The notes below the pieces were generated by a model. That model saw only the letters and a program-made list of their open reading frames with translations, did no database searches and was not told where the DNA came from. From contig JAVXOZ010000009.1 in assembly GCA_036644995.1 (NCBI GenBank), positions 3,121 to 67,120 on the forward strand: a stretch of 64,000 nt of DNA, written 5' to 3'. The first letter of the stretch is position 1, and every line of letters begins with the position of its first letter. The position numbers and the translations under genes are program-made. This document shows, piece after piece, positions 7,640 to 7,740 of this stretch. Source of the stretch: Clostridiales bacterium (GTDB taxonomy: Bacteria; Bacillota; Dehalobacteriia; UBA7702).

Positions 7640-7740
7640 AAAACAAAATATATTTCAGTAATAATTAAAGTATGGCGGTTGTATTTATGCAGATGCCATA
7701 TTTTTTTGGTTTGATTCTGAAATATGCGTAAAATACCACG
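7640..7740 (+). repeat. uninterrupted paralog of the hairpin 'carrier' sequence that hosts repeat copies 4 and 5 at 52.3 kb (short inverted termini aaatatatttcag...ctgaaatat around a central imperfect hairpin + T-run)
   Basis: 'aaatatatttcagtaataat..tatggcggttgtatttatgcagatgccatatttttttggtttgattctgaaatat' aligns with 52281-52336 plus 52711-52745, but has one hairpin and no 162-bp insert. Confidence 0.6.

Follow-up and report, generated by a model that had tools for sequence, protein, structure and literature searches.

The intergenic segment at positions 7616–7745 of the DNA analysed here (a stretch of 64,000 nucleotides from a Clostridiales bacterium, hereafter the window) is an intact paralog of a module of about 110–130 nt, a second copy of which is interrupted at 52.3 kb by two tandem copies of a 162-nt unit, U. 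This unit is probably a MITE-like element that inserts preferentially at hairpins and duplicates the whole hairpin, at the 52.3-kb site as elsewhere. We refer to the module as the carrier, to its intact copy as carrier A (locus A) and to the interrupted copy as carrier B (locus B).

A first-pass annotation of the window had described bases 7640–7740 as aligning with both flanks of the 52.3-kb tandem, and as containing a single degenerate hairpin and no 162-bp unit. Both parts of this description are borne out. Alignment of 7620–7760 with 52270–52336 joined to 52713–52770 gave a mean column identity of 80%, and carrier A (7616–7745) is about 80% identical to 52254–52336 joined to 52713–52760 on both sides of the hairpin. 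The alignment does not fail beyond the hairpin: matches lie well outside it, on the left in the block CTAAAAA..AAATATATTTCAGTRATAAT and on the right in the block TTTTT.TGG.TTTRATTCTGAAATAT. In a self-BLAST of the window the left half (52254–52336 against 7616–7699) was recovered with E = 3e-7 and the right half (52688–52740 against 7673–7725) with E = 8.7e-8. The hairpin of carrier A (7673–7699) is imperfect, folding as RNA at −12.4 kcal/mol with one internal mismatch and G.U pairs, and a sensitive BLAST search of the window with locus B as query found no copy of the 162-nt unit inside 7616–7745. The short inverted termini reported for the carrier are real in both copies (AAATATATTTCAG / CTGAAATAT at locus A, an 11-nt perfect pair at 52286–52296 / 52732–52742 at locus B), and in the predicted fold (z = −2.7) they pair as its basal stem. 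The parts of carrier A and its setting are as follows.

7616–7745, plus strand: carrier A, an uninterrupted intergenic module that aligns with 52254–52336 plus 52688–52760.
7143–7427 and 8012–8087: setting of carrier A, with a zf_Tbcl gene (7143–7427, own terminator at 7444–7474) on one side and tRNA-Trp (8012–8087, minus strand) on the other.
7626–7654, plus strand: promoter-like part, with a −35-like TTTATG (7626–7631), a 17-nt spacer and a −10-like TATATT (7649–7654).
7646–7658, plus strand: left arm of the inverted termini, AAATATATTTCAG, from sequence and fold.
7673–7707, plus strand: hairpin TGGCGGTTGTATTTATGCAGATGCCAT (7673–7699), then A and T7 (7701–7707), from the fold and a pattern match with hairpin M of locus B.
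7717–7725, plus strand: right arm of the inverted termini, CTGAAATAT, from sequence and fold.

The promoter-like positions are conserved with carrier B and with three related modules, W1–W3, described below. The stem-loop followed by A and T7 has the features of an intrinsic terminator, and we predict that the carrier hairpin acts as one; a terminator consensus scan missed it owing to the internal mismatch, and the same scan flagged the right hairpin of locus B. The module thus comprises a promoter-like left half and a terminator-like hairpin with its T-run, all closed by an inverted repeat of 9–11 bp.

At locus B the carrier begins about 17 nt past the stop codon of the last methylase gene (51476–52237) of a cobalamin operon. 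It is split as follows.

52254–52336, plus strand: left half of carrier B, ending in hairpin L (52311–52336, or 52310–52336 with the preceding G).
52337–52498, plus strand: U1, the first tandem 162-nt copy, CAGATTGT...ACAGCCTG.
52499–52524, plus strand: hairpin M, GGCAGTTGCATTTATGCAGCTGCCAT, between both tandem units.
52525–52686, plus strand: U2, the second tandem copy, 97.6% identical to U1.
52687–52760, plus strand: hairpin R (52688–52713) and the right half of carrier B, including CTGAAATATAT at 52732–52742.

Hairpins L, M and R correspond to the hairpin of carrier A, which stands alone and unduplicated. Hairpin R is the one flagged as terminator-like, with the tail ATTTTTATGG. U1 and U2, at 97.6% identity, are each nearer to the other than to any further copy.

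U is dispersed. The BLAST of locus B against the window recovered three copies besides U1 and U2, at 4426–4588, 6261–6422 and 8402–8563, making five in the window, and a sixth lies just outside it, about 1 kb past the right end, at 173–333 of the conspecific contig L112. All six are on the same strand, measure 162–163 nt and are 84–98% identical to each other. U starts with CAGATTGT and ends with ACAGCCTR, its outer ends being CAG ... CTG/CTA, and similarity among the copies stops exactly at these ends; comparison of the copies revealed neither a 3′ tail nor a 5′ truncation. The terminal inverted repeats are weak: when the right end is reverse-complemented (CAGGCTGTGGATAAAG), 10 of its 16 positions agree with the left end, CAGATTGTCAAAAAAC (p = 0.0014 by shuffling). 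The left repeat recurs inside the unit, at positions 37–53. Inside U lies an inverted repeat with 33-nt arms that are 82% complementary, and the fold of the unit is very stable (z = −12.8). In the youngest copies the plus strand folds 10–14 kcal/mol better than the minus strand (−69.9 versus −56.1 and −67.9 versus −53.2 kcal/mol), with more G.U pairs, and one stem position varies among copies as U-A, U.G and C-G. Changes in the 8402 copy break pairs and do not preserve them.

U contains no long ORF, stop codons interrupting all six frames. A 142-aa ORF without family match (4303–4731, plus strand) reads through the copy at 4426–4588; it is almost certainly spurious and a possible annotation trap. 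Neither U nor the carrier matched an Rfam family at the gathering threshold over the whole window, and relaxing the cut-off to E up to 10 gave only chance-level hits at both loci. A scan of 30 window proteins turned up no transposase, and the window holds no reverse transcriptase and no cas or intI gene. Being small, non-coding and multi-copy, with terminal inverted repeats, target duplications and an empty-site polymorphism, U is best described as a dispersed, non-coding, non-autonomous MITE-like transposable element.

Each of the five U sites is flanked by its own direct duplication, of 9, 13, 19, 22 or 26–27 bp.

4413–4601, plus strand: U at 4426–4588 with a 13-bp duplication, CATTATATTTTAT (4413–4425 and 4589–4601); the target is not a stable hairpin.
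6239–6444, plus strand: U at 6261–6422 with a 22-bp perfect palindrome, AAACAATAGYATGCTATTGTTT, present as AAACAATAGCATGCTATTGTTT at 6239–6260 and as a second copy with one C>T at 6423–6444.
8383–8582, plus strand: U at 8402–8563 with a 19-bp hairpin, AGCGATTT-NNN-AAATCGCA.
52337–52686: the tandem units of locus B, with a 26–27-bp duplication, (G)TGGCAGTTG...CTGCCAY.
L112:173–333: the sixth copy, with a 9-bp duplication, CCCTTAGGT.

The duplication coincides exactly with an entire palindrome or hairpin at three sites out of five (−6.7 to −19.5 kcal/mol); the other two (9 and 13 bp) are not hairpins. Among intergenic windows of the same lengths, whole-window hairpins that stable occur in only 0.04–0.4%, so that the coincidence of duplication and hairpin is not due to chance. 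At the 8402 site the left duplicate (8383–8401) reads AGCGATTT-CAC-AAATCGCA, and the right one (8564–8582) has the loop TAT instead of CAC.

Conspecific MAG contigs, retrieved through exact protein matches and 99.4–100% identical to the window, gave direct evidence on the state of a site before insertion. Two of them, L093 (GCA_036648935.1) and L096 (GCA_036652095.1), carry empty alleles at the 6239–6444 site: one 22-bp palindrome stands directly before ACAAGC where the window has palindrome, U, palindrome, and the interval from the DinB-like gene to the zf_Tbcl gene is shorter by 184–185 nt. A third contig, L094 (GCA_036652275.1), ends inside U at the 6261 site and represents a filled allele. 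The empty alleles fix the boundaries of U and show that it is, or recently was, mobile in the population. U at 4426–4588 was present in six of six conspecific contigs. Since the duplications are specific to each locus and a true allele with a single palindrome exists, the hairpin is the target and not a part of the element. It is locus-specific DNA that was duplicated on insertion, and not a component shared by unit and carrier.

The same annotation took carrier A for an in-genome ‘before’ state of the insertion. A single hairpin is indeed the right pre-insertion state, as seen directly at the 6261 site in the two empty contigs. Carrier A itself is a paralogous proxy and not the actual allele, and the conspecific MAG contigs searched from both sides yielded no allele of locus B that is empty or holds a single unit, because all of them end in or near the element. 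Carrier A can thus be taken to show locus B before insertion by proxy only. From either side of locus B, contigs break inside or next to U, as a multi-copy repeat would lead one to expect, and one contig (L100) is a U1/U2 chimera, perhaps an artefact of assembly. The sixth U copy is where all four long MAG contigs end. Contigs also break at a tandem duplication beside locus A, 6673–7037 and 7110–7474 (90.7% over 365 nt), which contains the zf_Tbcl gene, encoding a small treble-clef zinc finger, and its terminator.

The members of the duplicated hairpin pairs (6239–6260/6423–6444 and 8383–8401/8564–8582) differ only in or next to the loop, by C-to-T changes (AGCATG/AGTATG and CAC/TAT). The palindromes of the two empty alleles (L093:355–380 and its counterpart in L096) differ at 5 of 22 positions, with flanks that are 98–99% identical. 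These patterns suggest that mutation may be elevated at an extruded palindrome.

In the mechanism that we propose, U would insert preferentially at DNA palindromes or hairpins. Staggered cuts at both sides of the hairpin base would then leave an entire hairpin copied on either side of U, with a duplication whose length would follow the hairpin (19, 22 or 26–27 bp) and would be shorter (9 or 13 bp) where there is no hairpin. At locus B, the target duplication would leave two intact hairpins, and a second hit on the same hairpin, or unequal exchange between hairpin copies, would yield the order hairpin-U-hairpin-U-hairpin. Re-hitting or duplication by exchange is possible because each insertion leaves two intact target copies. 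Hairpins L and R differ at two positions, and M differs from each of them at 5 of 27, including one compensatory change from T-A to C-G; neither two successive insertions nor unequal exchange predicts this pattern. The outer hairpins both carry ATTTTRCAAC and are both perfect palindromes, and hairpin M has a loop and 3′-arm variant, ATTTATGCAG, in common with carrier A. A closer kinship of M to carrier A (23 of 27 identities) than to L and R (22 of 27) was considered and set aside, the difference being too small.

By this mechanism U would behave like a miniature derivative of an IS1630-type element, moved in trans. From the likeness in target duplication, a DDE transposase of the IS1630 type, in the IS30 family, is a plausible mobilising enzyme, although we hold this assignment tentatively: no transposase was seen among the 30 proteins scanned, U has weak terminal repeats, and two of the five sites are not hairpins. 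We infer that the mobilising enzyme recognises the extruded hairpin or cruciform. A stronger form of this idea, in which the enzyme would read DNA shape and not sequence and would cut any extruded hairpin or cruciform at its base, each insertion regenerating two targets and arrays such as that at 52.3 kb growing by themselves, seems to us unlikely. In a bolder version still, the strand-biased and strongly folded RNA of U would take part in its own mobilisation.

The carrier had been proposed as a second, smaller mobile repeat class and as the preferred landing site of U, and the data support neither proposal. A profile of the A/B pair found no full copies beyond these two, whether in the window or in some 5 kb of further conspecific DNA (about 69 kb altogether). 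No direct duplication flanks either copy, no presence/absence polymorphism was seen, and locus A is spanned by just one further contig, which does not differ from the window. Past the inverted termini, homology with locus B and W1 goes on for about 30–45 nt on the left and about 15 nt on the right. As for landing, the copies at 4426–4588, 6261–6422, 8402–8563 and L112:173–333 are all in unrelated sequence; with four of five insertion sites elsewhere, the carrier is one of several targets and not a preferred one. Furthermore, its left half (7600–7672, 52240–52310) resembles three modules on the minus strand.

8624–8705, minus strand: W1 (nhmmer E = 1e-4; z = 7.7 with carrier A).
7755–7845, minus strand: W2, convergent with and adjoining carrier A (z = 6.5 with carrier B and 12 with W1).
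13689–13780, minus strand: W3, downstream of tRNA-Leu (z about 10 with W1 and W2).

Pairwise z scores reach 7.7 between modules and carriers and 10–12 among W1–W3, all three of which lack the right half of the carrier. The positions conserved between carriers and W modules, read from the alignment, resemble a sigma-70-type promoter: a −35 TTGyrk, a 16–17-nt A-rich spacer and a −10 TATmwT. The family consists of intergenic modules of about 60–80 nt with the core TTGGCTYTTTSTYAATGGTTGYGGTAT...TAAAATAT.ATT.AGTAATAAT, the left half of the carrier being a diverged member. Judged from these motifs, the modules look like related putative promoters. In the carrier, the hairpin and its T-run follow the promoter-like part by about 20 nt, and the whole might be a very short transcription unit, from promoter to terminator, instead of a mobile element; we put this forward with some doubt. 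On the minus strand, W1 is followed after about 70 nt by the hairpin that received U at 8402. Of the window's three hairpin targets, two are thus near such modules, but in opposite relative orientations.

That the carrier is nevertheless a small MITE with the termini AAATATATTTCAG / CTGAAATAT, on which U prefers to land, is improbable. The conservation of the inverted termini in both copies and the occupation of one of two carriers, by two units, would fit it. It is opposed by the four of five insertion sites outside carriers, by the missing flanking duplications together with homology that runs past the termini on both sides, by the count of only two full copies in 64 kb plus some 5 kb of conspecific sequence, and by a left half held in common with W1–W3 without the right half. 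Another view of the whole arrangement, in which hairpin-U-hairpin would be a paralogous cellular gene for a structured RNA with its own terminators, spread by segmental duplication, could appeal to the very stable fold (z = −12.8) and to the terminator-like hairpins at locus B. The flanking hairpins, however, match within a locus and are wholly different between loci, and the precise empty allele with one palindrome contradicts the idea directly. Similarity moreover ends exactly at the ends of U, no Rfam family was matched and no homolog of U was found outside the host species in any collection searched, and we regard a cellular RNA gene as extremely improbable.

Two further explanations concern how U moves. 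The plus-strand advantage in folding and the presence of all copies on one strand may leave room for a role, or an intermediate, at the RNA level. Spread through an RNA intermediate, by a SINE-like or retroelement-dependent structured RNA with target-primed insertion at nicks near hairpins, would be in keeping with the variable duplications of 9 to 27 bp, as in target-primed reverse transcription, with the better fold of the plus strand (−69.9 versus −56.1 and −67.9 versus −53.2 kcal/mol) and its additional G.U pairs, with the U-A, U.G and C-G variants at one stem position, and with six copies on one strand. The strand bias nevertheless amounts to only five independent sites, about 1 in 16 by chance. 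The ends of U are precise and bear terminal inverted repeats, 3′ tails and 5′ truncations are missing from its copies, changes in the 8402 copy break pairs, the window has no reverse transcriptase, and the published elements that duplicate hairpins are DDE insertion sequences; an RNA intermediate is therefore very improbable. Another transposase known for long duplications is a quite unlikely source as well. Elements of the IS1634 group, within the IS4 family, generate direct repeats that are long and variable, which would suit U. The IS1634 family is listed in PMC3365025, and the IS1202 group makes duplications of 16–28 bp (PMC10132070). Against them, the literature consulted on these groups reports no duplication coinciding with a palindrome for either, and IS1202-family elements end in 5′-TGT...ACA-3′ (PMC10132070) where U ends in CAG...CTG. 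Membership of U in the IS1202 family itself was rejected on these outer ends (TGT ... ACA against CAG ... CTG/CTA). Integron cassettes and CRISPR arrays were likewise discarded, the hairpins being locus-specific. IS200/IS605-derived elements make no target duplication and insert 3′ of a fixed tetra- or pentanucleotide. U has duplications, its left flanks (GTTT, CGCA, TTAT, CCAT and AGGT) reveal no fixed target, and an origin of this type was rejected. We retain the MITE-like element that duplicates its hairpin targets as the preferred reading.

As far as the searched collections show, U is lineage-specific. Exact-pattern scans with its most conserved 21–22-mer found no match in 185,579 species genomes (a collection without the host species) or in viral contigs, and one chance 21-mer in JGI metagenomes. 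Locus B gave no blastn match to plasmids and phages, and a concatenated six-frame ‘peptide’ of U none in a set of 5.8 billion proteins. No U-like sequence was present in 80 Clostridia loci reached through the DinB-like protein, whose best relative in the species set is only 42% identical, leaving no usable synteny.

The host is a spore-forming member of the Clostridia. The region 22133–26550 contains an mtmB gene (22785–24188, Pfam MtmB on both halves) with an in-frame amber codon (TAG, 23409–23411), directly followed by sequence that matches PYLIS_1, the pyrrolysine insertion element, at 74.5 bits (threshold 70). The same cluster encodes a B12-binding corrinoid protein, a RACo-type activase, a URO-D/MtbA-like methyltransferase and an ammonium transporter. 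The mtmB amber codon and PYLIS_1, in a host whose riboswitches and sporulation genes mark it as bacterial, indicate that it probably belongs to a pyrrolysine-using lineage of Clostridia. Two divergent cobalamin riboswitches (34395–34534, minus strand; 34709–34886, plus strand) lie between a set of minus-strand genes and the plus-strand cobalamin biosynthesis operon (34966–52237), and a ZTP riboswitch (10116–10193, minus strand) lies upstream of purH.

Other variable or repeated stretches were observed in the same DNA. The MAG contig L108 (GCA_036647135.1), identical in other respects, lacks a stretch of 236 nt (13451–13686) that stands between copies of the 9-bp direct repeat TCACCAAAA; this stretch shows no obvious terminal inverted repeats and is either an insertion with a 9-bp duplication or the subject of a deletion between short repeats. 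Upstream of the gene for a DHH-CBS-poly(A) polymerase, at 60190–60235, a 23-nt unit, ATTGTTTAAGATAAACTTAATTA, occurs in one, two or three tandem copies among conspecific MAGs (L112–L115). Degenerate 7–8-nt repeats (GGTAACTC, AGTAACCC, TGTAATCC ...) fill positions 1–110 of L112, about 1.3 kb past the right end of the window, and adjoin the sixth copy of U.

Carrier A is useful mainly as a control, for what the 52.3-kb site looked like before insertion, and together with the empty allele at 6239–6444 it assigns the hairpin to the target and not to the element. The more interesting object is U itself, a 162-nt MITE-like repeat that duplicates entire hairpins. Were this behaviour general, it would explain how elements settle behind genes without destroying terminators or operators, why short-read assemblies of the host species break at every copy of U, and how tandem hairpin-insert arrays form, and it would offer a handle on structure-directed choice of targets by a transposase. 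If the mobilising enzyme did read shape, U would be the first such element outside the Mollicutes and the first miniature one, as well as a natural model for the origin, from an ordinary transposon, of integration that duplicates a repeat, which is the topology of CRISPR adaptation.

The layout repeat-insert-repeat-insert-repeat at 52.3 kb, built as each integration duplicates a palindromic repeat, recalls the integration of CRISPR spacers and integron cassettes, by topological analogy only. At integration of a CRISPR spacer, Cas1-Cas2 duplicates the leader-proximal repeat. The situation at U loci is the reverse of that in CRISPR arrays and attC cassettes, as the ‘repeat’ differs everywhere and the ‘insert’ is always the same element. 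The bacterial MITEs (RUP, BOX and SPRITE of pneumococcus, Correia, ERIC; PMC10969869) are, like U, small, non-coding, multi-copy and intergenic, with terminal inverted repeats, a strongly folded transcript and presence/absence polymorphism, but their duplications are short and fixed, commonly TA or a few bp. Neither an IS30-derived MITE nor one that duplicates whole hairpins is mentioned in a 2024 review of prokaryotic MITEs (PMC10969869). The IS1202 group resembles U in its unusually long duplications of 16–28 bp (PMC10132070), and differs in its TGT/ACA ends, in a duplication length that is characteristic of each element and in that its duplications are not reported to coincide with palindromes. 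In behaviour, the nearest known elements are IS1630 of Mycoplasma fermentans and ISMhom-1 of M. hominis, both of the IS30 family, which enter intergenic inverted repeats and duplicate them over long and variable lengths. Duplications of 19–26 bp (PMC2853133) and of 16, 23, 25 and 26 bp (PMC3317919) are reported for IS1630, and ISMhom-1 behaves like it, its duplication leaving the flanking genes intact (PMC7648426). U has the corresponding long, variable duplications containing an inverted repeat, with whole hairpins of 19, 22 and 26–27 bp. In contrast, the mycoplasmal elements are autonomous, 1.2–1.4 kb long, bounded by terminal repeats of about 27 bp, equipped with an IS30-type transposase and confined in these reports to Mollicutes; U is non-coding, 162 nt long, has weak 16-nt terminal repeats, also makes duplications of 9 and 13 bp and resides in an uncultured spore-forming lineage of Clostridia. 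Duplication of a whole hairpin is rare and is otherwise reported, in the literature surveyed, only for these IS30-family elements of mycoplasmas.
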